This document shows, piece after piece, positions 2,893 through 32,435 of a DNA stretch of 36,244 bases. The DNA lies in IMG/VR virus record IMGVR_UViG_3300039306_000021, positions 1 to 36,244 of that record. One strand, given 5' to 3'. The notes below the pieces were generated by a model, which saw only the letters and a list, made by a program, of their open reading frames with translations, made no database searches and had not been told where the DNA came from. The position numbers were made by a program, and so were the translations under genes. The stretch is from a virus (lineage: Duplodnaviria; Caudoviricetes). Position 1 is the first letter of the stretch, and every line of letters begins with the position of its first letter.

Positions 2893-3447
2893 CTAGTGGC
2901 TCAGTAGTCGCTTGTAGCGCTTGACGGTACTCTCACTAATGCCTGTTACCTCCACAATCTGGTGCACGGAAAGACCTGCCGCAAGGGAGGTCTTTACTTT
3001 TTTAAGCCGTTCCTCATCCACACCGACTGGCCGGCCCATGTGTTTCCCCTGAGCCTTGGCCAGCTCGATGCCCGCCTGGCGCCGCTCCCCGTTACTCTCC
3101 CGCTCAAACTCGGCCAGCGCCGCAAACACCGAGAGCACCATACGCCCGGCCGGCGTATTGGTGTCGATGCCCAGGTCGAGCGCCACAAAGCGGATATCGT
3201 TTTTGCTGAAGTCGGCAATGAGCTGTATGATGTGGGCGGTGTTGCGGCCGAGGCGCGAGAGCCGGTTCACCAGCACCGTGTCGCCGGGCCTGAGCATGGC
3301 CAGTAGCTTGTCGAGTTCGGGACGGCTCGTGCTGGCGCCGGTTATCTTCTCCTGATAGATGCGGTCGGCGCCGGCCGCCGTGAGTTCCTGAAGTTGGGTA
3401 TCGAGGTTCTGATCCTTCGCCGACACACGGGCGTAACCAAAGTTCAT
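2893..3447 (-). CDS. Small serine recombinase (resolvase/invertase family)
   Basis: GYARVS catalytic motif, RLSRLGR, FAALAEFER..ER, MGRP linker and C-terminal HTH; 184 aa. Confidence 0.95.
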   Translation of the reverse strand: MNFGYARVSAKDQNLDTQLQELTAAGADRIYQEKITGASTSRPELDKLLAMLRPGDTVLVNRLSRLGRNTAHIIQLIADFSKNDIRFVALDLGIDTNTPAGRMVLSVFAALAEFERESNGERRQAGIELAKAQGKHMGRPVGVDEERLKKVKTSLAAGLSVHQIVEVTGISESTVKRYKRLLSH

Positions 3448-3618: not shown

Positions 3619-4110
3619 CTAAATGGCCGAATAACAGATTTCTTCCACAACTTGGCCCTGTATACTTGACTGGGCCTGTTTTATGGTCAGCGTTGTCTCC
3701 GATAGTTCTACGATGTCATACACGTCGCTGTAGGGGCTAAAGGGACGGGCGAAGGCCATGATCAGCTGCGATTCATTGCTTCCCGGACGAAAGCTCCAGC
3801 GATCTACCCGCTGTTGAGGATCACCCGGCGCGCACGTCATGGCTCCTTCGTCGAGCAGGAGGCTGTAATCAGGCTTAAACTGGAGAAAATCATCGTGCCA
3901 ACAGGCAGGGCGGCCGTCGTAGACATTGCCCCCCGTGAAGGCTTTACGGTTCGTGCCAAAGGGAGACGACACGGTGTGCCCTACTTCCCGCCATGGGCGG
4001 CGGGTCAGCAGGTCCATCTTGGACGGGGGAACAATGGGTGTTGCTGGCTCTTTTTTACAGCCAACCAGCATAGCTGGTGCAACTAGAAGTAATAGAAATT
4101 TTCGTGTCAA
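3619..4110 (-). CDS. Lipocalin-like surface lipoprotein
   Basis: TTG start; MTRKFLLLLVAPAMLVG-CKKE lipobox; LLT..PW, C..DD...F and DEG...C patterns typical of Cytophagales lipocalin-like lipoproteins. Confidence 0.75.
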   Translation of the reverse strand: MTRKFLLLLVAPAMLVGCKKEPATPIVPPSKMDLLTRRPWREVGHTVSSPFGTNRKAFTGGNVYDGRPACWHDDFLQFKPDYSLLLDEGAMTCAPGDPQQRVDRWSFRPGSNESQLIMAFARPFSPYSDVYDIVELSETTLTIKQAQSSIQGQVVEEICYSAI

Positions 4111-8822: not shown

Positions 8823-10297
8823 AGCGAGATGTTGCGGTAGGTAACGCGGGCCGACTCCAGCCGGCGGCCGGTGGGCACGCTCAGGCTGATTTTCTCCCAC
8901 AAATACTTGCGGTAGCCCACCAGCTCCTTGCGGCCCGGATCCAGGCTGAGCAGATCCGCCACCCGGAACTCCATGGTGCGCTCCTCCTTGCCGGCGGCCG
9001 AGAGAAAGTCCAGCCAGGGCTTATGGCTCCGCGCGTACAGGCCCAGCTCACCACGCCAGTGCAGGGTGCTCTCTCCCACCACCTGGCCCTGAAGGTTGGT
9101 GTTCAGCGGCGAGGCCAGCGGGTAGAGCTTGCCGTCGCTGGCTGGCTGCAGACCCTGGTCGAGCAGCAACGCCAGGCCCAGCCGCGAATCATCCCCCAGC
9201 TCGAACTCCGGGCTAGCACCCTTGCTCTCCAGCATCGGTACCAGCACGTCGACGTTGCGGATGGTGTCGCGCACGGTGCCCACGTGCAGGGTCGTGGCGC
9301 TGGTACTGACTGGCTCCTTGCCGGCACCGAGTAGCAGCTTGCTCCAGCTCGTGTCGCGGGTTTTGTTCAGCTCATCGTCGAGCAGCTTCATCTCCAGCGT
9401 GTAGCCCTGGTACTGGGGTGGGAAGAGCCGGGCCTTGCCACCCTGGCGGGTCACGTAGGCTGGATCAGCCACAATGGAGCCCAGGCGTGTGATGCGCAAC
9501 TGCCGGCGCACCGGGTCGAAGCTGTAGCCCAGGCCCAGGTACTTCTGCAGGGCCACCAGAAACTCTCCCACGCTCATGTCGGGCACGTGCTGATTGAGCT
9601 GCACGGCCCCAACGTAGGTATTGAGCTTATTGACCACCTTATCCGCGGCCCGGTTGGAAACAACAATCAACTTCCGCGCTTCCGGCTCCTCCGTCCAGGG
9701 ACCGGAGAGCGAGTAGCCCACGGCCGCCAGCACCCGGCGCAGCAGCGGAATGAGGCGCGGGCACGGCACCAGCGCATGGTAGTTCAGGGCCGTATTGAAG
9801 GCATAATAGCCGGGGAAGTAGTAGTTGAGCCAGCCGATATAGTCCTTGTTGGCCGAGCCATAAAACGCCGTGTTGCGCATCATGGGCAGGGCGTAATCGG
9901 CGGCATCGTGGCGCCGCTCCAGCGGCACGGTGCCTAGCTCGAGGCTTTTGAGTGAGACGCCCTCGATGCGCGACTGCAGGTCCGCCGCATCGGCCAGAAA
10001 CTTGTACTGAAACACCTGCTTTTCTTCATCATAGGACTCATAGACCAGCGCGCCTACCCGCCAGAGCACGCCGTCGATGTAGAGCTCCGCCGGCTCCGGC
10101 GCCGGCACCTGGCCCTGGGCAGCGCGCCGGTGCGGGAAATTGAGCTTGCGCTTCGTGTCGTCTGTGCCGGCCAAGCTAAAGGGATAGGTCGTGATGCCGG
10201 GCACCGAGTTGAAGCCGAAGTAGGGATTGCCAATTTCCAGGCTCACGGTACTGCTGGCGAGCATCAGCCAGCCGGCGGCGCATTTCAGTCCGATCAT
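8819..10297 (-). CDS. Putative tail-tip/hub protein
   Basis: 492 aa in the tail operon; N-terminal L..NPYF...G..TYPFSL pattern; HVPDMSVGEFLVALQKYLGL helix typical of hub proteins. Confidence 0.55.
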   Translation of the reverse strand: MIGLKCAAGWLMLASSTVSLEIGNPYFGFNSVPGITTYPFSLAGTDDTKRKLNFPHRRAAQGQVPAPEPAELYIDGVLWRVGALVYESYDEEKQVFQYKFLADAADLQSRIEGVSLKSLELGTVPLERRHDAADYALPMMRNTAFYGSANKDYIGWLNYYFPGYYAFNTALNYHALVPCPRLIPLLRRVLAAVGYSLSGPWTEEPEARKLIVVSNRAADKVVNKLNTYVGAVQLNQHVPDMSVGEFLVALQKYLGLGYSFDPVRRQLRITRLGSIVADPAYVTRQGGKARLFPPQYQGYTLEMKLLDDELNKTRDTSWSKLLLGAGKEPVSTSATTLHVGTVRDTIRNVDVLVPMLESKGASPEFELGDDSRLGLALLLDQGLQPASDGKLYPLASPLNTNLQGQVVGESTLHWRGELGLYARSHKPWLDFLSAAGKEERTMEFRVADLLSLDPGRKELVGYRKYLWEKISLSVPTGRRLESARVTYRNISL

Positions 10298-12231
10298 GGC
10301 AGCAGCTCGTCAAGGGTGGGCAACGCCGGCACCACCATGCCGGCGGGCAGGTTGGGCAGCAGCGGCGTGAAGCTGCGCTCCCGCGGCAAGTAGAAGTCCA
10401 GCTCCAGCGTGTTGATGTACTTGCCATCCTCCACCAGCGGCACCGTTTTCGGCTTTATCACGCCCGAGAGCAGCTGGCCCTGGGCGATGAGCAATGCCTG
10501 GCGGGTGAGCAGCAGGTCCTGGTGAGCCGCCATCTCGGCGCGGGTGCGCAGGCCGCTGGCCAGCTTGAGCACGGGCCGCAGCACGCGCTCCTGCACCGAC
10601 GTATCGCCCAGCTGCGGGTCGTAGTCCCAGGGCAGGGAGAGCTCCACGTCGTCGCCACTTACTTCCAGCTCCAGGGCGGCCTCGCCGGTGGCCACGAATG
10701 TATTCATGCCACCCAGCGAGTTGGCATACAGTACATAGCGGCGCGGGCCATCCTCTTCCAGCAGCTCGTAGTGGCGCACCTCCGATGTAGTGAGCCCATC
10801 GGGCGACTCCACCCACACGTCCCATCCCACCAGCAGTTTCTCGCCTTCATCGTTCAGCCCTAGCTGCCGCCGGCCCACCGGTAGGCACAGCACTTCCCCT
10901 CGCACGAGTGGTGCCAGCAAGCTAGGCCCAGCCACCGGCGCCGAGGTGTCATCGCTATAGTAGCAGAGCACCTGCAGCTTCACGCCACTGAGCGTGCCTG
11001 GTACCAGCCAGTAGAGGAACTCGGGCTGATCGGCAAACACGGCCTTATGCACCGGCTCCCAAGTAAGGAAGGGCCGGCGGGCGGTGGCGTACTTGTTCCA
11101 GGCCTCAGAGCGAGCCTCCCGGAAGCTCAGCCCACCCAGCAGCACAAAGTGCGTGGTGGAGATGGCAATGGCATCGCGCTCCGGCGGTGTGCCGAACTTA
11201 GGCGCGTAGTGCAGATAAAACCGCTTGTACTGGCTGCTGGCCCGCACAATCCCCTTCTGCCCCAACTCGGGCACAAATTGGCGCAGGTAGGGCGAGAGCA
11301 GCTCCTGCACCTCGAACACGGTGCGGCCCTCACGGTCGGCCGGCTGCTCCAGCACGGTGGCCACCTGGGTGAAGTCGCCGGAGCCATTCACCTCCTCCAC
11401 AAACACCTCACAGACGAAGCTCAGATTGGGCATCGTCGTAGGGTCAGCGCGGTACTCGTCGCCAGCGTCCAGGGCCTGGGTGATGGCGTTACGCGAGAAA
11501 TACAGCTTATAGGCCTCGTAGTCCAGATTGACCGTCTGGGTGCAGCCGACAGCATCGGTTACAACGCACGAAAACGCAGAGCCCGGCGCGATATCGTCGC
11601 GGTGGTCCAGCGTCGAGTTATCGTCCCACAGGTACGTGTAGGGTGCCATGCCGCCGATCACCACCAACGTTACGGTGCTACCCTGCTGCTGCACGTCGAC
11701 GTTAATGCGCGGGTTTTGGTCGGCCTTCAGCGAAACCGTAGCCTTAGCTCCAGTGGGCACATCATAGACCGTTGCGCTGTAGGTGCCAACGGGCACCAGG
11801 CCCCGCTCCTGCTCCGTTGGCCCATCGGACCAGGCAAAGGTGAACGGCCCAGGCAGCGTACCACCGACTTGCAAATCCAGCTCCCCGGAACTGGAGCCAA
11901 AGCAAATGGCAGTAATCAGCTCCAGGGTCAGCTCCAGCGTGTTGACGCCTTCAAAGCCATCATAGAAATACGCCGTAATAGTGCCAGGGCCTGGCACCTC
12001 GTGCACCACTTCATCTAATGGTTTGTAGTAATCTTCAGGAGGATTGGAGTCGCCTCCAGCACTAAAATCTTGATTGTAGGTCCCATAGGGATAGGCATAC
12101 ACCACTTTCAGCGTCTCCGTGTTGAAGTGCCAGGCGTTGGAACGGTAGTAGTAGCCATAGGACCCCTGGCCATTACGGTCGCCATACTCCCCTTCCTGGG
12201 CCCAGTTCTCGCGTAGTAAGATCAGGGCCAT
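10294..12231 (-). CDS. Minor tail protein with SprB-like repeats
   Basis: CFGSSSGELDLQVGGT..PFTFAWSDG...GTY.ATVYD and GGMAPYTYLW...VVTDAVGCT repeats; C-terminal YANSLGGMNTF phage tail motif. Confidence 0.65.
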   Translation of the reverse strand: MALILLRENWAQEGEYGDRNGQGSYGYYYRSNAWHFNTETLKVVYAYPYGTYNQDFSAGGDSNPPEDYYKPLDEVVHEVPGPGTITAYFYDGFEGVNTLELTLELITAICFGSSSGELDLQVGGTLPGPFTFAWSDGPTEQERGLVPVGTYSATVYDVPTGAKATVSLKADQNPRINVDVQQQGSTVTLVVIGGMAPYTYLWDDNSTLDHRDDIAPGSAFSCVVTDAVGCTQTVNLDYEAYKLYFSRNAITQALDAGDEYRADPTTMPNLSFVCEVFVEEVNGSGDFTQVATVLEQPADREGRTVFEVQELLSPYLRQFVPELGQKGIVRASSQYKRFYLHYAPKFGTPPERDAIAISTTHFVLLGGLSFREARSEAWNKYATARRPFLTWEPVHKAVFADQPEFLYWLVPGTLSGVKLQVLCYYSDDTSAPVAGPSLLAPLVRGEVLCLPVGRRQLGLNDEGEKLLVGWDVWVESPDGLTTSEVRHYELLEEDGPRRYVLYANSLGGMNTFVATGEAALELEVSGDDVELSLPWDYDPQLGDTSVQERVLRPVLKLASGLRTRAEMAAHQDLLLTRQALLIAQGQLLSGVIKPKTVPLVEDGKYINTLELDFYLPRERSFTPLLPNLPAGMVVPALPTLDELLP

Positions 12232-13605: not shown

Positions 13606-13640
13606 CAAAACTGCCGCAGGCTGCCTCGGGTGAAAAGGAC
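13606..13640 (-). promoter_or_regulatory. Late promoter copy P1
   Basis: GTCCTTTT-19 nt-CAGTTTTG, 4 nt before the ATG at 13601. Confidence 0.75.
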
Positions 13641-13642
13641 AC

Positions 13643-13672
13643 AAAAAAGCCCCAGCTGCCGGGCCGGGGCTT
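13643..13672 (-). terminator. Intrinsic terminator abutting P1
   Basis: AAGCCCC/GGGGCTT stem with T6 on the minus strand. Confidence 0.7.
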
Positions 13673-18366: not shown

Positions 18367-18401
18367 CAAAAAAGCCCCAACGCTGACTGCGTTGGGGCTT
18401 T
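18367..18401 (-). terminator. Intrinsic terminator after terL
   Basis: AAAGCCCCAACGC/GCGTTGGGGCTTT perfect stem with a T tract. Confidence 0.85.
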
Positions 18402-21382: not shown

Positions 21383-21417
21383 CAAAACTGCCGCGGGCTG
21401 CCTCGGCGAAAAAGGAC
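21383..21417 (-). promoter_or_regulatory. Late promoter copy P3
   Basis: GTCCTTTT-19 nt-CAGTTTTG; spacer nearly identical to that of P1. Confidence 0.75.
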
Positions 21418-21419
21418 GC

Positions 21420-21450
21420 AAAAAAGCCCCAGCCATGCGGCTGGGGCCTT
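21420..21450 (-). terminator. Intrinsic terminator abutting P3
   Basis: GCCCCAGCC/GGCTGGGGC stem with T6 on the minus strand. Confidence 0.8.
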
Positions 21451-25361: not shown

Positions 25362-25393
25362 AAAAAAGCCCTCGACCAGCTACAGTCGAGGGC
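25362..25393 (-). terminator. Intrinsic terminator abutting P4
   Basis: GCCCTCGAC/GTCGAGGGC stem with T6 on the minus strand. Confidence 0.8.
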
Positions 25394-25417: not shown

Positions 25418-26383
25418 TTAGAAAAACAGCACCGAATTGCCCGGCGTGAAATACACGTAGGTGTTGGCCTTGATTTCTAGGTCAAGATAATTTGCTTCAC
25501 CCGTGAGGTTGCGCACCTCATAATCAATCGTGGAGCCGCCCCCTGCGTATTGAATTTCCCCATTGAGCTTGATGCGGTACTCTATGCCGCGGCCCTGCCC
25601 AATGTTGAGCCGAATGCCGCTGAAGATGTAAATGCGCACCGTGTTCAGCCATTCACCTGCCGTGCCGGTTCGCTCCGGACTGGTTTGCGACCCGGTCCAG
25701 CCCGGGCCAAACACGTAGTCCTGGTACGTTAGGGGCCGCGCCAGATTGCCTTGCACCCGCACCTCATGGAAGGCGGAGCCGCCCACGCCGCCGAAAAACG
25801 CTGCCGGATAGTACAGGGCCTGGGGGGCACCACTGGGCTCGGTATACAGCAGCTGCGTGCCGCAGAAGTAATCGATGCGCGTATCGTGCACGTCAATCAT
25901 CAGCCGCTGGTCGGGTTGCATGGTGCCGGCCGCTTTCTGCGAGCCGTTATGCAGCACTAAGTAGTCGTAGCCGTTCAAGGCAAAGCAATAGTCCAGGCTC
26001 CGTGCCAGGATGGTTTCGCCCGCATTATACACCGTGGACTTCCACCCTATGCGGTTTTCTCCGGCCGAGCCGTTGTAGCCCGCGGCCAGGCGGCCCCGCA
26101 GGCCCGCACCGTTATTTTGCAGGATCGGACTCCCCTGCCCCCACGAGCTGCCGCCCCCGGCGCTCGCGATCACGGTGCCGTTGGCCTGCGCAGCGGACTG
26201 ATTCAGCTGCGGCCAGCCGACAATGATCCCGAAGGGCGCGTTCGGGCTTGCCGGCACGACGGCCGTGGCCTCGTAGCCGGCGGGGATGTTGCCATTAGCC
26301 CGCTTGCGCAGGTGTACGACTTGCCCCGGCGTTGCGCCAGGTAGTTGAAACGGGTTGGAAAGCGCTATTTGCCAGTCAGCCAT
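25418..26383 (-). CDS. Appendage tip protein (G5), beta-sandwich/lectin-like, candidate receptor binding
   Basis: 321 aa, Gly/aromatic beta-rich; last gene of the fibre operon. Confidence 0.55.
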   Translation of the reverse strand: MADWQIALSNPFQLPGATPGQVVHLRKRANGNIPAGYEATAVVPASPNAPFGIIVGWPQLNQSAAQANGTVIASAGGGSSWGQGSPILQNNGAGLRGRLAAGYNGSAGENRIGWKSTVYNAGETILARSLDYCFALNGYDYLVLHNGSQKAAGTMQPDQRLMIDVHDTRIDYFCGTQLLYTEPSGAPQALYYPAAFFGGVGGSAFHEVRVQGNLARPLTYQDYVFGPGWTGSQTSPERTGTAGEWLNTVRIYIFSGIRLNIGQGRGIEYRIKLNGEIQYAGGGSTIDYEVRNLTGEANYLDLEIKANTYVYFTPGNSVLFF

Positions 26384-26385
26384 GT

Positions 26386-27369
26386 CTAGGAAAGATAAAA
26401 TTCGTACTCACTCGGCACCTCGCCCGCCGGCAGGTTCCATTGCGTATTGCCGCGGTAATCCACCTGCAGGCCCGTTGGCGCGGCCGGCGTGCTGGGGGTG
26501 GCGGGCGCACTCGTGCCGCTGCCCTCGTTAATGAGCCGGTAAATGGCCTGCAGCGGCGTCAGGCCCGCCCAGTCCTGCTTGGTGGCATTCAGGAAATTAC
26601 CATCCAGCAACACCGATTCCAGTGCCAGCACCCGGGTGCTCAGCGCGGCCGTGGTGGCATTATTCGTCTTGTTATTGACCGCGGCCTGCAGCGCAGCCAA
26701 CTCGTCCTTGGAAGCCGCGTTTTGCAGCTGAATGAGCAGGGCATTGGTGAGAGCGTTTGTATCCGGGTTGCTCTCATAGGCTGCTTTGATCTGCGAGGCC
26801 GAGAGCCGCTCGTTGAGCAGGTCCGGGTCCGAGAGCTTCACGTACGCAGCGTTCTGCCCCGTGCTGGTGGCCCGGTACAGGGCCCAGCGCCCATCCCCGT
26901 CATCCGAAACGAACACATTGAAGGGCAGCTTGGGAATGGTATAGGCGTTACGGTCAGCCACGGTGGCCACCGTCACCTCCGAGAACTGCCCGGCAATCAG
27001 GTTGTAGAGCTTCTGCAGGGTGTTGCCCGCTTCCGGCACTCCATCCTGCAGGTGCACGTCGTAGGCCTTGAGCAGCACACCGACAGCCTCCGAGAAGTCC
27101 GAGATGGTGCTGGCCGGCTGCGTGCCGAAGTGGTTGGGGCGGTACTTGGCGTAGTAAATCTGCTCGGCCGTGGCGCCGCGCTCGTTTTCCAGCGCATCAA
27201 GTCGCCGGTCCTGCGCTACCAGCTCCTGCTCGGCCTCATCGAGGTCCTGGAATACGGTATCAAGTTGCCGCTGCAGCGCCACGTCCGAGCCGTCCACGTA
27301 CTGCGTGGTGGCCCGCTCATCCAGTTCCTGCCGGAGCCGGTTAACCTCTTTTATTTCGAGAGCATCCAT
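26386..27369 (-). CDS. Fibre shaft protein (G4)
   Basis: Start moved to MDALEIKE at 27369; coiled coils; DGVPEAGNTLQKL, VATVADRNA and SQIKAAYESNPDTNA fibre-type motifs. Confidence 0.65.
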   Translation of the reverse strand: MDALEIKEVNRLRQELDERATTQYVDGSDVALQRQLDTVFQDLDEAEQELVAQDRRLDALENERGATAEQIYYAKYRPNHFGTQPASTISDFSEAVGVLLKAYDVHLQDGVPEAGNTLQKLYNLIAGQFSEVTVATVADRNAYTIPKLPFNVFVSDDGDGRWALYRATSTGQNAAYVKLSDPDLLNERLSASQIKAAYESNPDTNALTNALLIQLQNAASKDELAALQAAVNNKTNNATTAALSTRVLALESVLLDGNFLNATKQDWAGLTPLQAIYRLINEGSGTSAPATPSTPAAPTGLQVDYRGNTQWNLPAGEVPSEYEFYLS

Positions 27370-27373
27370 CGTC

Positions 27374-28195
27374 TTAGTTGTAGGCCCAGAGCCAGATTCG
27401 TTTGCCGCTGAAGCGGAATAGGTCAGCCGTAAGGGCGAGCAGGCGCATGCTGGCATCGTAGGTGTAATCCACCTCCGGCTCCAGCTCCAGGCCAGTGCCG
27501 AAGAACACACTCACGTCTCGCACCCCGGGGGCCAGCGTGAAGTGGGTATGCTCCGCGTCATAGGTGCCGAGGGAAACCTTGGTGCGGGTAGGGCTGCTCA
27601 GGTAGTAGTAGCCCCACAGCCGCACCCCCGCAAACTGCGCCAGCGGCAGGGTAATCGTGACAGTAGGCGGCGTGGCCAGCAGGTTGAGCGTGTAATCCAC
27701 CTCCGGCTCCAACTCCCGCCCACCACCCGTTTTCACGTCGAGCGACTTCGTGCCGGGGGGTAGTTCATATACTTGGTTGTCTGCCGAGTAGCGTCCGGGA
27801 AAACTGAGTTTTACTCCCTTGGTACCGGCGCCACCGGCACTGGGTGTGCTCGTGGCCGTGACCCGGCGCCAGTTCGCGTTATCGAGCAGCGCGGCCATGC
27901 GCTGCTCAGGGCTGAGCTGCGCATAGCCGCCAATTTCCAGGCGCATCTCGTACCAGGCTTCCGGAGGGCCCTCGCGCACGAGCACCGTCATGCCATGGGT
28001 GCGCTGACCCGAGCCATCCCCGTAGGCATTGAGCTTGCCATCGGGGTGCACCCCAATGGCCTGGAGCTCCTGCAGGGTATCAACGCCCCGGTCCCAGTTG
28101 CCCTTCTGCGCGAAGTGCGTGTTTTTGCCATTCTCCGCCCCGGTGGTGAGCGGGTCGAGCACGACGGTACCGAGCGGGTTGGCGCTGGGATTCAT
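27374..28195 (-). CDS. Appendage protein (G3)
   Basis: N-domain paralogous to the G2 N-domain; two tandem beta domains, each with ELEPEVDYT. Confidence 0.65.
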   Translation of the reverse strand: MNPSANPLGTVVLDPLTTGAENGKNTHFAQKGNWDRGVDTLQELQAIGVHPDGKLNAYGDGSGQRTHGMTVLVREGPPEAWYEMRLEIGGYAQLSPEQRMAALLDNANWRRVTATSTPSAGGAGTKGVKLSFPGRYSADNQVYELPPGTKSLDVKTGGGRELEPEVDYTLNLLATPPTVTITLPLAQFAGVRLWGYYYLSSPTRTKVSLGTYDAEHTHFTLAPGVRDVSVFFGTGLELEPEVDYTYDASMRLLALTADLFRFSGKRIWLWAYN

Positions 28196-29491
28196 TTAGT
28201 TGACGCCGATGGTGAAGGTGCCCGTGTCCTTGCTGCCCCACTCCAGCTTGAAGTTTTCGGTAAAGCCGTCGCTGTTGGTAAAGGGGAATACCCGGCCCAG
28301 GAAGGCATTGTTAGGCAGCCCATTGACCGTGTAGCTGCCATTGCCGGCCTCTTCCACCCAGGCAAACACCGGGTACTGGTTAGCCAGCGTGATGTCGCGC
28401 GTCTGCTGGCGCGCGGCCTGCAGCTCCTGGCCAGCCAGCGCGCGCAGGGCGGCCGAAATTTCGCTGTTGGACATGGTGGCCGGATCCTGCGCAACGCCGC
28501 CCCAGAAGCGCATCGACGTGTAGCGGATGCCCACGGACGTGCTGGTCGACTTATTGGCCGTGTCGGTCGCCGTAATGGAGAAGTCGGTGTTGGTGTTAGG
28601 GGCCGTGTTGGCGTTTACCACGCCCGAGAGTTTTACCGAGCCGTCGCCATTCAGCTGGGCCTGGCCAGCTACTACTACCGTCTGCAATGGGTAGGTACGC
28701 TGGCCCACGTTGAAGTGCAGCGTAACGGCCGTGCCGGCTCCTTTTTGGCGCAGGGGGTTGTCTGCCGAGAGGCTCACCGAGGGGGCGTAGTCCTTCACCA
28801 GCAGCTTTTTCCAGAAGTCGGGCCCCTTGCCTGTATAGTCGCTTACGCCCGCAAACCCTCCGATTTGCTCCGTGATGCCGGCGATGGTAAACTCCTGCTC
28901 TGCTCCCCCTGCAGGCCGCTTTTCCAGCTCATCGAGGCGCTGATGGATGAGCGTGAGCAGCTGCTGCAGGTCCACCCCTTCCGGATACTGCGTGAAAAGG
29001 ATGAGCAGCTCGCGCACGGTGCTCACGAGCGTATCACCGTCGCCGGCCTCGTTGCCGATGATGGCCTCCGTGGCCAGCAGGCGCTCGTGCAGCTTGCGCA
29101 GCGTGTCGCCCGAGAGCGGCACGCCATCGCGCAGGATCCGGATGGCCTCACTGGGGTCCCCGGTGCCTTCCCCCGTCACCAGCACCCAGTTGCCGTTGTC
29201 GGCCAGGGCGTTGACTTTATCCGACTCTGAAGGCAGAGTGGCAAAGTCCGGAATGCGCAGCTGATACTTCGCGCCGCTGAGCAGCGTAATGGTCATGTTC
29301 ACCGTGCGCTGGCCCGAGCCGATGCCGAAGGCATTGAGCTTACGGTCGGGCGCCACTTTGATGGCGTCGCGCTCCGTCAGGTCTTTGACAGGCTTATCCC
29401 AGTCCCCTAATCGGGCATAGTGGGTGTTTTTGCCGTTATCGGCGGCCGTGGTGGCGGCGTCGAGCAGAACGGTGCCGAGAGGATGTGCCAT
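28196..29491 (-). CDS. Appendage/fibre protein (G2)
   Basis: N-domain shared with G3, middle DGVP..GDTLRKL shared with G4, C-terminal ~195 aa shared with G1. Confidence 0.65.
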   Translation of the reverse strand: MAHPLGTVLLDAATTAADNGKNTHYARLGDWDKPVKDLTERDAIKVAPDRKLNAFGIGSGQRTVNMTITLLSGAKYQLRIPDFATLPSESDKVNALADNGNWVLVTGEGTGDPSEAIRILRDGVPLSGDTLRKLHERLLATEAIIGNEAGDGDTLVSTVRELLILFTQYPEGVDLQQLLTLIHQRLDELEKRPAGGAEQEFTIAGITEQIGGFAGVSDYTGKGPDFWKKLLVKDYAPSVSLSADNPLRQKGAGTAVTLHFNVGQRTYPLQTVVVAGQAQLNGDGSVKLSGVVNANTAPNTNTDFSITATDTANKSTSTSVGIRYTSMRFWGGVAQDPATMSNSEISAALRALAGQELQAARQQTRDITLANQYPVFAWVEEAGNGSYTVNGLPNNAFLGRVFPFTNSDGFTENFKLEWGSKDTGTFTIGVN

Positions 29492-30771
29492 TAGTCTACT
29501 GTGAGGTTAAAGGTGCCGGAATCAGGCATCGCGCTCCGCTCGATGCGGTAGAGCTCCCCGAATCCGTCAGAGTTGGTGAAGTGAAAAGTCTTGCCGCTGA
29601 AGGCATTGTTGGGCAGGCCGTTGACCTTGTAGCTGCCGGCGCCCAGCTCGGCCGGCCGGGCCACCACGATAAACTCCTCCACCAGGGTCACGGCCATGCT
29701 CTGGGCGCGGCTGGTGCTGAACTCCTGGCCCCCGAGCGTGCGCAGCACGGCGCTCAGCTGCACATCGCTCAGGGAGAACGGATCCTGCCCCATACCACCC
29801 CAGAAGCGCCTGCTCTGGTAGGCCACCTGCGCCGAGGCCTGCACCGTAGCGCCTGTGGAATCGGTGGCCACCAGCTGGAAGGTGGTGTCGGTACTGGCCG
29901 CGGTAGTCGTCGATACGGTACCGGCTAGCTTGGGCGAGCCATCGGTGTAGCGCTGCTGCTGCCCGGCCACGACAACGTTGGTGATGGGGTTGGTGCCCGG
30001 CGTGACGGTAAAGGCCAGGCTCACGGCCGTACTGGCGCCTTTCTGGCGCAGGGGGCTACTGGCCTGCAGCGTGGCCGTGGCCGGCGAGTCGGGTGTGAGC
30101 ATAATTTCCATCGCGTCACCCGTTTTATCCGCCATGACCGTCACCTCGTCGCCGGTGGCAATGTCGCCGACGCTCGTCGTAGCGACGAAAGAGCGAGTGC
30201 CGACCGGGCCGCCACTCCCACCAGAGCCGGGCAGCGGGCCGCCTTCCATGCCTTCTGATGACTGCAGGCCCCCTTCGGCCACAAGCCAGGTGCCTTGGTA
30301 CGGGCGGGCCGGGCGAATCGTGTCGCCCGTGAACTGCCAGTCGTAGCCGTTGCGGGCGGTTTCGGTGCCCGTGCTGTAAGAAGTGGTGAACTCCAGCGGC
30401 TCAGTGGGCGTGCCCAGCAGCTGCACCTGCCCGTTCAGGTCACGGTAGAGCACCACGAAGCGGCCGCCCCGCAGCTTCTCCAGGGCCGCCGCCAGGCCCG
30501 GCGTATGGCGGGCCAGATCACCGGTAAGCTTATGGGCCGTGGCCTCGCCGTGCCGGCCCATGGGCTTAGCGGTGGCAGCATACTTCACCGAGCCGCGCAC
30601 GGCCCGCAGCACGTACCACAGCGCGCCGGGCCGGAGCTCCAACTGCCGGAGTAGCAGCGGGCCGCGGGCCAGGAAGCTGACCAGGTTCGCGGCCGCCGTG
30701 TACCAGAGCAGCTCGACGCCCCCGAGGTTATCTGCCCGCTCCTGCTGAAGGTTAACGAACGGATGCGCCAT
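29491..30771 (-). CDS. Tail-tube-like domain fused to an appendage anchor (G1)
   Basis: Start moved to MAHPFVNL at 30771; DNLGG...DLNG.V.LLG...P....YSTG...RNG resembles 21718-22311; Gly linker; C-domain shared with G2. Confidence 0.6.
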   Translation of the reverse strand: MAHPFVNLQQERADNLGGVELLWYTAAANLVSFLARGPLLLRQLELRPGALWYVLRAVRGSVKYAATAKPMGRHGEATAHKLTGDLARHTPGLAAALEKLRGGRFVVLYRDLNGQVQLLGTPTEPLEFTTSYSTGTETARNGYDWQFTGDTIRPARPYQGTWLVAEGGLQSSEGMEGGPLPGSGGSGGPVGTRSFVATTSVGDIATGDEVTVMADKTGDAMEIMLTPDSPATATLQASSPLRQKGASTAVSLAFTVTPGTNPITNVVVAGQQQRYTDGSPKLAGTVSTTTAASTDTTFQLVATDSTGATVQASAQVAYQSRRFWGGMGQDPFSLSDVQLSAVLRTLGGQEFSTSRAQSMAVTLVEEFIVVARPAELGAGSYKVNGLPNNAFSGKTFHFTNSDGFGELYRIERSAMPDSGTFNLTVD

Positions 30772-31378
30772 GCTGCAGCAGATCAACCAGGGGGAGCGGC
30801 AGGGCCATAACGTGCTGACGCAGAGCCTGCATGCGGGCCTGAAAGGACAATTCTGTCGTTTTAGAAGACACTTCGGCCGTTTTAGAGGACAAAACTGCCG
30901 GGGATTTCTTCGCGTTTTTGCGCGGACGCACCCGCACGCCGGCGTTGCGCTGCACCGCCTTCTTGAGCGTCTGCAGGGGCATCTCCTCTTCTTGGATATC
31001 GTAGAGGGCGCAGTACGTGAGGATGGCCTCCGTAATAGGCAGCCGGTGCATGACGCGCCCGCAGTTGGCCCGCACCCAGAGGTAGAGCTCTTGGTGGATC
31101 AGATCGTCCACGTAGCGGTTAAAGCGGGAAATAGTAAAGTCACTGGCCCCCGTTACCCGGAACTGGCGGGTAGGATAGTTCTTTAAGTCTATCGGGAACG
31201 TATCGGTGCAGTCGTCGAGCTTTCCCACGCCGCGCTGGCCCTTGGGCTGGCGCTGCAGCAGGCCGCTGAGGTAGAGGCCAAACCGGTCGTTTTTGGAGAG
31301 CACGTACTCCGGACCCACATGAGCCAGCAGGTACTTGCGCACGTGCGGCTTCACAGGCAACTGTAAGACTTTTAGCAT
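30752..31378 (-). CDS. Basic phage protein, candidate DNA-binding late regulator
   Basis: N-terminal LPVKPHVRKYL strand-helix and C-terminal EAILTYC..YDI.EE...LQTLKKAVQR HTH-like segment; behind promoter P5. Confidence 0.5.
   Translation of the reverse strand: MLKVLQLPVKPHVRKYLLAHVGPEYVLSKNDRFGLYLSGLLQRQPKGQRGVGKLDDCTDTFPIDLKNYPTRQFRVTGASDFTISRFNRYVDDLIHQELYLWVRANCGRVMHRLPITEAILTYCALYDIQEEEMPLQTLKKAVQRNAGVRVRPRKNAKKSPAVLSSKTAEVSSKTTELSFQARMQALRQHVMALPLPLVDLLQHGASVR
30845..30890 (-). repeat. 21-bp tandem repeat (about 2.3 units) carrying TGTCY motifs
   Basis: Units at 30847-30867 and 30868-30888 match at 17 of 21 positions; encodes LSSKTAE VSSKTTE LSF. Confidence 0.7.
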
Positions 31379-31398
31379 ATAAGCAACTTAGAATAGGT

Positions 31399-31433
31399 CA
31401 AAACTAGTATTCCCTGCTGCTAGAATAAAGGAC
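31399..31433 (-). promoter_or_regulatory. Promoter copy P5
   Basis: GTCCTTTA-19 nt-TAGTTTTG, with a canonical Bacteroidota -7 element TAnnTTTG. Confidence 0.7.
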
Positions 31434-31747: not shown

Positions 31748-32362
31748 ATGATCTACGCACATCGCTCAGCAAGCCTGCTACTTCTCCTCACGACTACTGC
31801 CCTGCTGACCAGCTGTGGCAAGGAGGAGGCCACTCCCGAGGTAAAAGAGGAAGCCACGCTTTCCCGCTCCCTGGTTTACGATCCAGCCACGACCAGCAAG
31901 GCACCCTTTGTTACCTCCTACTCGGCAGCCAATACTAAGACAAGCGCCAGGATCACTCCGGAGTCTAGTACAGTACCTACCGACTTGCTGCAACTCAGCT
32001 TGAGCGGCGATGGACCTGACGCGTCAGATAGCCTTCACATTACGCTGCCCGTTTTCAAACTAAAGCCTAACTGGGTCGGCACCTATACCCTTTCCCAATC
32101 AGGAGCGGATGGTTCGACGGCGTATACCTTCCACAACAAGAAAAGTACGCCAACCTATTACGCTCTTTTTTATTCTTCAATAGGAAGCATTACCATTACT
32201 TCCTATGATGCGACCACTCGGCACGTGAGCGGCACCTACTCGCTGGCAATGCCCAGAGCGGTTGATTTCTCGGATATTTCCAGCGTTTCTGGCCCTATCC
32301 AAACCGTATTTGGCAAGCTCACGCTAACGGGCTCCTTCTCACGGCTGCCCATAGCTCCCTAA
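31748..32362 (+). CDS. Lipoprotein moron, opposite strand to the phage genes
   Basis: LLLLLTTTALLTS-CGKEE lipobox; GSITITSYD....VSGTYS beta motif; AT-rich upstream region with TATCTTG. Confidence 0.8.
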   Translation: MIYAHRSASLLLLLTTTALLTSCGKEEATPEVKEEATLSRSLVYDPATTSKAPFVTSYSAANTKTSARITPESSTVPTDLLQLSLSGDGPDASDSLHITLPVFKLKPNWVGTYTLSQSGADGSTAYTFHNKKSTPTYYALFYSSIGSITITSYDATTRHVSGTYSLAMPRAVDFSDISSVSGPIQTVFGKLTLTGSFSRLPIAP

Positions 32363-32387: not shown

Positions 32388-32435
32388 CTCCGGCCCCGGC
32401 CCGCAGCTATTAGGAGTTGCGGGCCGGGGCCGGAG
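32388..32435. terminator. Long GC hairpin between convergent genes
   Basis: 21-bp arms with one G-T mismatch and a 6-nt loop; no T tract. Confidence 0.6.

Follow-up and report, generated by a model that had tools for sequence, protein, structure and literature searches.

Modules that meet across gene boundaries: a likely connector pair of phage fibre proteins

The virus record IMGVR_UViG_3300039306_000021 (Duplodnaviria; Caudoviricetes), whose entire length of 36,244 nucleotides (nt) is the window analysed here, carries a cassette of five consecutive minus-strand genes, G1 to G5, in which related protein modules recur on the two sides of a stop codon, and the locus raises the question of why a repeated unit should span the boundary between genes. 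G1 (29491-30771, 426 residues) and G2 (28196-29491, 431 residues) both end in a module of about 215 residues, B, and G2 and G3 (27374-28195, 273 residues) both start with a module of about 110 residues, C. The B copies, residues 213-426 of G1 (29494-30135) and 216-431 of G2 (28199-28846), match at 46.5% over 217 columns (E = 3e-58), and the C copies, residues 2-110 of G2 and 5-117 of G3, at 51.8% over 114 columns (E = 2e-28). At the DNA level 29304-29637 repeats 27999-28339 at 65.9% over 346 columns (E = 9e-15) and crosses both gene junctions; the duplicated unit is therefore B-stop-C, and on this, as on the placement of the modules, an earlier sequence-only reading of the window was correct. 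As mapped, the C modules occupy residues 1-110 of G2 (29162-29491), with an N-terminal arm and a small core, and residues 1-117 of G3 (27845-28195). No Pfam or PHROG family matched the B and C of the window, nor did any PDB sequence beyond weak Ig (immunoglobulin) matches; kelch-like designed proteins in the PDB search summed weak repeats and were discounted. We think it probable that B serves as the socket for a plug, C, by which separate fibre proteins would be joined end to end in gene order.

Loci were collected independently by each module, 179 by B and 33 viral loci by C. The C profile used for the B-anchored score was not trained on those loci, 15 of 196 B hits that were cut or short were dropped, and the next gene was scored when a C-starting gene lay within 150 nt. 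A C-starting gene followed 164 of the 181 informative B hits, or 108 of 122 clusters at 90% identity and 45 of 54 at 60%; after one iteration of both profiles the counts were 154 of 172 hits, 104 of 119 clusters (90%) and 53 of 65 (60%). Anchored on C, a B-ending gene lay directly upstream of 34 of 36 hits (27 of 28 clusters); both misses concern a single gene, whose end looks B-like by eye. For other long, non-B open reading frames (ORFs) in the same loci the background was 6 of 715, about 1%. The succession proposed from the window alone is thereby borne out in about 88% of B clusters. The joint is also sharply placed: the B match ends no more than 21 residues from the C-terminus in 149 of the 150 best hits (by eye), behind highly diverse N-termini, C starts within the first 20 residues in 129 of 133 proteins, and the median gap between the two genes is 3 nt (133 non-redundant pairs). 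Natural fusions were also sought, and no chain with B followed by C was found among 455 domain-bearing ORFs (from partly redundant loci) or 275 proteins.

The same order was found next to the tail-tip genes of an unrelated Hymenobacter phage, twice in a 642-kb phage, and in Vibrio pVp-1 and D93, Bacteroides DAC16 and Tunturi_5 (Acidobacteria); in Cellulophaga phi12:1 two C-core genes follow a gene, annotated as structural, whose end is weakly B-like (E = 0.19). The pair is thus present in Bacteroidota, Vibrio and Acidobacteria as well as in 640-kb phages. Linked B domains in other phages are only about 15-30% identical to those of the window and their flanking domains are unrelated. The pairing goes beyond local duplication and the pair is real and general. 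First scans with narrow seeds gave few matches; the B profile matched 1,549 clusters at 50% identity, 359 of them at E<=1e-10. In a phylum-wide sample a full B was present in 2 of 401 genomes, with 8 weaker, mostly Ig-only matches, and the pair is therefore viral and patchy. PHROG matches of C members were to virion structural proteins (45 of 135) and tail proteins (32 of 135). B and C are likely a widespread, unnamed pair of connectors, without a match to any named protein family. A description of the pair was not found in the literature, a weak negative for modules that have no searchable name and with subscription papers and supplements uncovered.

Several loci show further arrangements of these modules. 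In the T4-like phages of L017, L034 and L035, B stands at the end of the gene that follows a gp5-like spike gene, and in L139-L154 it is fused to proteins of 1,250 residues, a socket apparently mounted on differing virion parts. The genes after B in L084, L220, L230, L233 and L277, missed by the C profile or matched only in the core, open with other peptides that look conserved, which suggests further plug subtypes. In L021 (6001-9626) a C protein of 131 residues and the next gene, whose N-terminus we take to be Mtd-like, both end in a D-C-G motif.

Proteins that, like G2, start with C and end with B (C..B) form the middle of longer chains. The window shares the order B, C..B, C with Hymenobacter perfusus, Hymenobacter YC55, L032, L072 and the group L139-L154, and in L207 the chain is lengthened by a second, different C..B gene. 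B lies upstream in 14 and C downstream in 13 of the 16 clusters of C..B proteins, with one miss on each side near a locus end. Two variants of the same connector overlap with the socket-and-plug reading, and a chaperone role and a neutral linkage are true alternatives to it. The first variant, in which the own B of G2 binds its own C to give a chain of many G2 beads with G3 as the cap, is possible, at odds of perhaps one in four. G2 bears both ends, key motifs are common to both B copies and to both C copies, C..B middle genes occur in 16 clusters, and the available part of the account of the cyanophage A-1(L) neck fibre gives a precedent, a separate three-gene operon with gp82:gp81:gp80 at about 1:14:1 (PMC10966104). 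The modules have no homology to those proteins (no B or C profile match at E<1 in the gp80-82 locus; 0.1% by hhalign for B against gp81), L207 has two different C..B genes in series, and C..B genes are lacking in most loci, making up 24 of 455 ORFs. Identity between successive copies in one locus is 29-73% for B and 39-61% for C, mostly only 40-60%, which leaves room for orthogonal pairs. The second C..B gene of L207 and this degree of identity would fit an ordered chain as well or better, and for the fibres of variable length that had been envisaged from the window we found no evidence.

Predicted structures were inspected for both modules. The B model (predicted local distance difference test, pLDDT, 96) comprises a helix, an Ig/PKD-like domain (residues 233-326 of G2) and a second, unnamed beta domain, B2 (residues 327-431; 28199-28513). 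The best fold match of the Ig/PKD-like domain has a Z of 9.1 and a root-mean-square deviation (rmsd) of 2.7 over 86 aligned residues, and at E<=0.001 there were 50 matches of the entire module to predicted viral proteins, from crAss-like phages, sipho- and myoviruses among others, with entries named tail fibre or baseplate wedge. No fold was listed for B2 in the whole-module searches, whose lists the Ig domain filled; the Atlas gave five unnamed, mostly viral clusters. The C model, for G3, is less confident (pLDDT 77) and residues 1-30, the arm, fall near 50 when C is modelled alone, although the arm is conserved (G9 94%, T10 89%). The core (34-115) aligns over 44-53 residues with an rmsd of 1.9-2.8 and a Z of 3.1-4.7, and the top seven rows are all tailspike neck (24qi, 6e1r, 6eu4), collagen XV/XVIII trimerisation (3n3f, 9bnb) or Mtd N-terminal (1yu0) domains, from which C differs by its extra conserved arm of 30 residues. 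Foldseek gave no match for the core, and there was no sequence match to PDB or Pfam. The fold neighbours weakly suggest that the C core forms a homotrimer. Mutual information computed across paired B2 and C puts 8 of the 12 strongest inter-module pairs at C residues 11-31, in the arm. Predicted as a complex from alignments, in a single copy each and with no controls, G2-B and G3-C twice scored 0.02 (mark 0.32), which says nothing for or against contact.

These models bear on the second variant, a branched connector in which each B monomer would hold a whole C trimer and so multiply the fibre by three at each step. B is modelled with confidence as a monomer, the Ig spacer on which it sits could splay out, and branched receptor-binding complexes pair a domain with a docking peptide, as the available part of PMC13352976 describes. 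The terminal position of the modules on both sides of the joint fits an axial arrangement instead, and we consider branching rather unlikely.

The gene slot itself provides a separate line of evidence. The N-terminal domain of G1 (about 165 residues; 30277-30771) is a conserved anchor of the fibre slot with matches in 49 of 165 Hymenobacter genomes. The best 30 loci with a G1 homologue end in a different 50-residue tail in 25 cases, and in 18 of these the gene that follows begins with another conserved peptide (strict pattern); the other five comprise the B form of H. perfusus and four that the script left unclassified. In the longer regions the order is regulator, G1 homologue, fibre-like genes, protease, and from this conserved order and the tail-peptide pair in the sister loci we conclude that the slot is the normal fibre slot of the family. 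A special status of its position ahead of the head protease is accordingly not supported. In the lineage of the window the C-terminal tail of the anchor and the start of the following gene were exchanged jointly, as a socket and its plug would be. The 50-residue tail and the conserved N-terminal peptide are a second candidate socket-plug pair and the family default (L235-L264, L267-L272, L274). Several B proteins (e.g. P0025) start with that peptide, which would make them converters between both systems.

The replacement of one terminal element by another also bears on the idea that B helps the next fibre trimer to fold or assemble, as a chaperone that does not remain in the virion. Strict adjacency fits such a role, and fibre chaperones are often encoded beside their clients. 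B, in contrast, takes the place of another terminal peptide on the anchor gene and is fused to many N-termini, including the 1,250-residue proteins and the entries named baseplate wedge and tail fibre, and we regard a chaperone as improbable. Least probable of all, and quite unlikely, is that B-stop-C is merely a linked DNA unit spread by duplication or recombination whose domains make no contact. In its favour, the repeat in the window is a true DNA duplication over the junction (66%); against it, the linkage persists at 15-30% identity of B, amid unrelated flanks and far above background.

The socket-and-plug reading can be cast as a mechanism. We infer binding, trimeric state, virion location and stoichiometry from the patterns described above. 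The C core would trimerise the downstream fibre and present three arms, which would take up their fold once docked on the B2 domains of the preceding trimer, in a linear 3:3 joint. G1 would be the anchor that ties the chain to the virion, G2 a spacer, each C..B protein adding one segment, G3 an adaptor, and G4 and G5 the variable tip; the chain would form a long side fibre whose tip can be exchanged. Candidate further joints are the E repeats of G3 and the half domains of G4 and G5. B occurs in more than 1,500 clusters across sipho-, myo- and crAss-like phages and megaphages, and a bolder proposal, which we put forward tentatively at somewhat lower odds than self-polymerisation of G2, is that B and C are a portable, non-covalent coupler of tailed phages: any virion part ending in B could carry any fibre starting with C, C..B proteins would serve as extension rods, and some, G2 among them, would self-polymerise, with length set by the rod-to-cap ratio instead of a ruler.

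Several observations weigh against the socket-and-plug reading. All of its support is genomic or predicted, and we found no experiment on any B or C member; the claim of a plug-and-socket pair therefore stands for the linkage in both directions and the lack of fusions, with binding as the conditional part. Every fold match of C has a Z of at most 4.7, below the bar of the tool. The covariation beats shuffles only in a reduced alphabet (7.4 against a maximum of 5.4) and not in the full one (5.1 against a maximum of 5.3), and the signal is weak both for this reason and because the shuffle removes relatedness. Fourteen of the 122 B clusters have no adjacent C by profile; by eye several of their next genes are divergent-C-like and others are not. 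In L008 B and C are 3.6 kb apart, L009 has a C with no B nearby, and in Pseudomonas Lu11 two C-core genes are not preceded by a B. As the loci were collected with short conserved patterns, members that have diverged are under-sampled.

The principle of such joints is known already, from the dual receptor-binding proteins of KP32 and the neck fibre of A-1(L), and by sequence comparison the B-C pair appears non-homologous to both. As far as the available text of PMC13352976 goes, the Klebsiella phages KP32, K11 and KP34 combine a branching domain of RBP1 with a conserved N-terminal peptide of RBP2. In that type, as is proposed for B and C, a domain of the upstream product receives a docking peptide at the N-terminus of the product that follows, and only the first protein is anchored in the virion; its functional hallmark, a conserved N-terminal element of the downstream protein tied to a domain of the preceding gene, is found here as well. 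The KP32 branching domain, however, is internal (around residues 224-227 of gp37) and carries a side branch, whereas B is the extreme C-terminus and is reused serially. By hhalign the B profile scored 0.2% against KP32 gp37 (residues 1-360) and 0.1% against T4 gp10 and gp9, and C 0.1% against the gp38-type conserved peptide, comparisons with single-sequence templates that exclude close homology only. The A-1(L) neck fibre, in the available part of its account, joins gp82, gp81 and gp80 (anchor, middle and cap) head to tail through N-terminal elements (PMC10966104). Like that system, which lies away from other structural genes, the window has anchor, middle and cap genes in one operon, here apart from the tail-tip genes; there gp81 is one globular bead in about 14 copies. 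The accessible portion of the crAss001 atlas leaves the outer fibre joints unresolved (PMC10172136), and that of 10.64898/2026.05.12.724579 concerns common N-terminal anchors and not a B-C pair.

A further likeness is to the T4 long tail fibre, in which several products, gp34, gp35, gp36 and gp37, build one fibre in gene order; we know of no reusable terminal pair of the B/C family there.

Other parts of the cassette may hold further joints. The N-terminal domain of G1 had been called tube-like, which is a lead only: its Atlas feature score is 0.83 to the Phage_tail_2 (44% of members) and Phage_TTP_16 clusters, and against this hhalign gives a probability of 1% to the putative tube gene of the window (100 columns, weak) and there is no PDB match. 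Between its two modules G2 has a helical shaft (28847-29161) with a short GxTLxKL motif in common with G4, which we take to be typical of trimeric fibres. G3 ends in two E repeats of about 73 residues each (27377-27820), correctly recognised from the sequence alone; they have a 33-bp DNA match at 91%, the two-unit pattern is retained in five homologues, and they are a candidate second type of socket, for G4.

G4 (26386-27369, 327 residues) has a coiled N-terminus that is conserved in H. perfusus, a fibre domain (residues 131-230) common to tail fibres of phiKZ-like phages (phrog_32345, E = 1e-20; PhiPA3 gp168, 51%) and a C-terminal half domain. A likeness of C to this fibre domain is not claimed, as a short motif aligns at a probability of 0.6%. 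G5 (25418-26383, 321 residues) has an N-terminal half domain and a variable tip, which is replaced in H. perfusus. The end of G4 and the start of G5 look like halves of what we presume to be one FN3-like domain (26230-26520 in the window; 12720-13010 in L001) and may form a strand-completion joint. The register of stop, 2 nt and ATG is kept in both the window and L001, though the rest of G4 and G5 differs, and the half domains are in register in H. perfusus; to this extent they hold up. Searched with a two-sequence profile covering both halves, the collected loci and proteins yielded no unsplit homologue, and a search with the G4 half domain gave two marginal matches in 165 genomes. A -1 frameshift joining G4 to G5 is not supported, with eight open codons upstream in the window and no common slippery site.

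The genome around the cassette is that of a tailed phage, with portal, terminase, S49 head protease, holin, endolysin and tape-measure genes (Pfam and PHROG searches), and is closely syntenic with a prophage of H. perfusus, which makes it a prophage of the Hymenobacter type. G1-G5 lie between G0 (30752-31378, minus strand), which is first in the transcript, and the S49 protease. G0 is a probable late regulator; it has no Pfam or PHROG match, and a G0-like gene precedes the G1 homologue in 7 of 8 regions examined, those seven holding this prophage family. The five genes are tightly coupled, as had been read from the letters, with a stop-start overlap at G1/G2 and gaps of 0, 4 and 2 nt at the following junctions. 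The cassette had also been credited with its own promoter and terminator. G1 overlaps G0 by 20 nt and the sole minus-strand promoter-like site (31374-31401, 9 of 12 matches, weak) is upstream of G0, and a dedicated promoter of the cassette is therefore not supported. The terminator claim agrees with an intrinsic-terminator-like hairpin of 11 pairs with a T run at 25368-25393 (minus strand), which closes the cassette before the protease and has the longest stem among 7 terminator-like sites in the window, compared with 6.3 in shuffles.

Elsewhere in the window, a 67-bp direct repeat (85%) lies between genes at 13606-13670 and 21383-21447 and is a possible regulatory or RNA element, and intergenic palindromes of 48 bp (32388-32435) and 31 bp (18371-18401) are probably terminators. 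A gene in the tail-tip region (10294-12231) has SprB repeats (Pfam PF13573, E = 2e-10), a host-type gliding-adhesin repeat. Low-GC or reverse-strand genes with lipoprotein-like signal peptides (by eye) lie at 1-513, 2205-2873, 3619-4110 and 31748-32362, and a resolvase at 2893-3447; these are likely cargo genes.

The attachment of fibres to the virion is understood for a few enterobacterial systems. The B-C pair would name the joint for many unannotated genes, among them those of the cultured Bacteroides phages DAC16 and SJC03, Vibrio pVp-1, Tunturi_5 and crAss-like phages, would mark the host-binding tip gene downstream and would give the order of assembly from the order of genes. If binding is confirmed, the pair would also be a small natural serial protein coupler.

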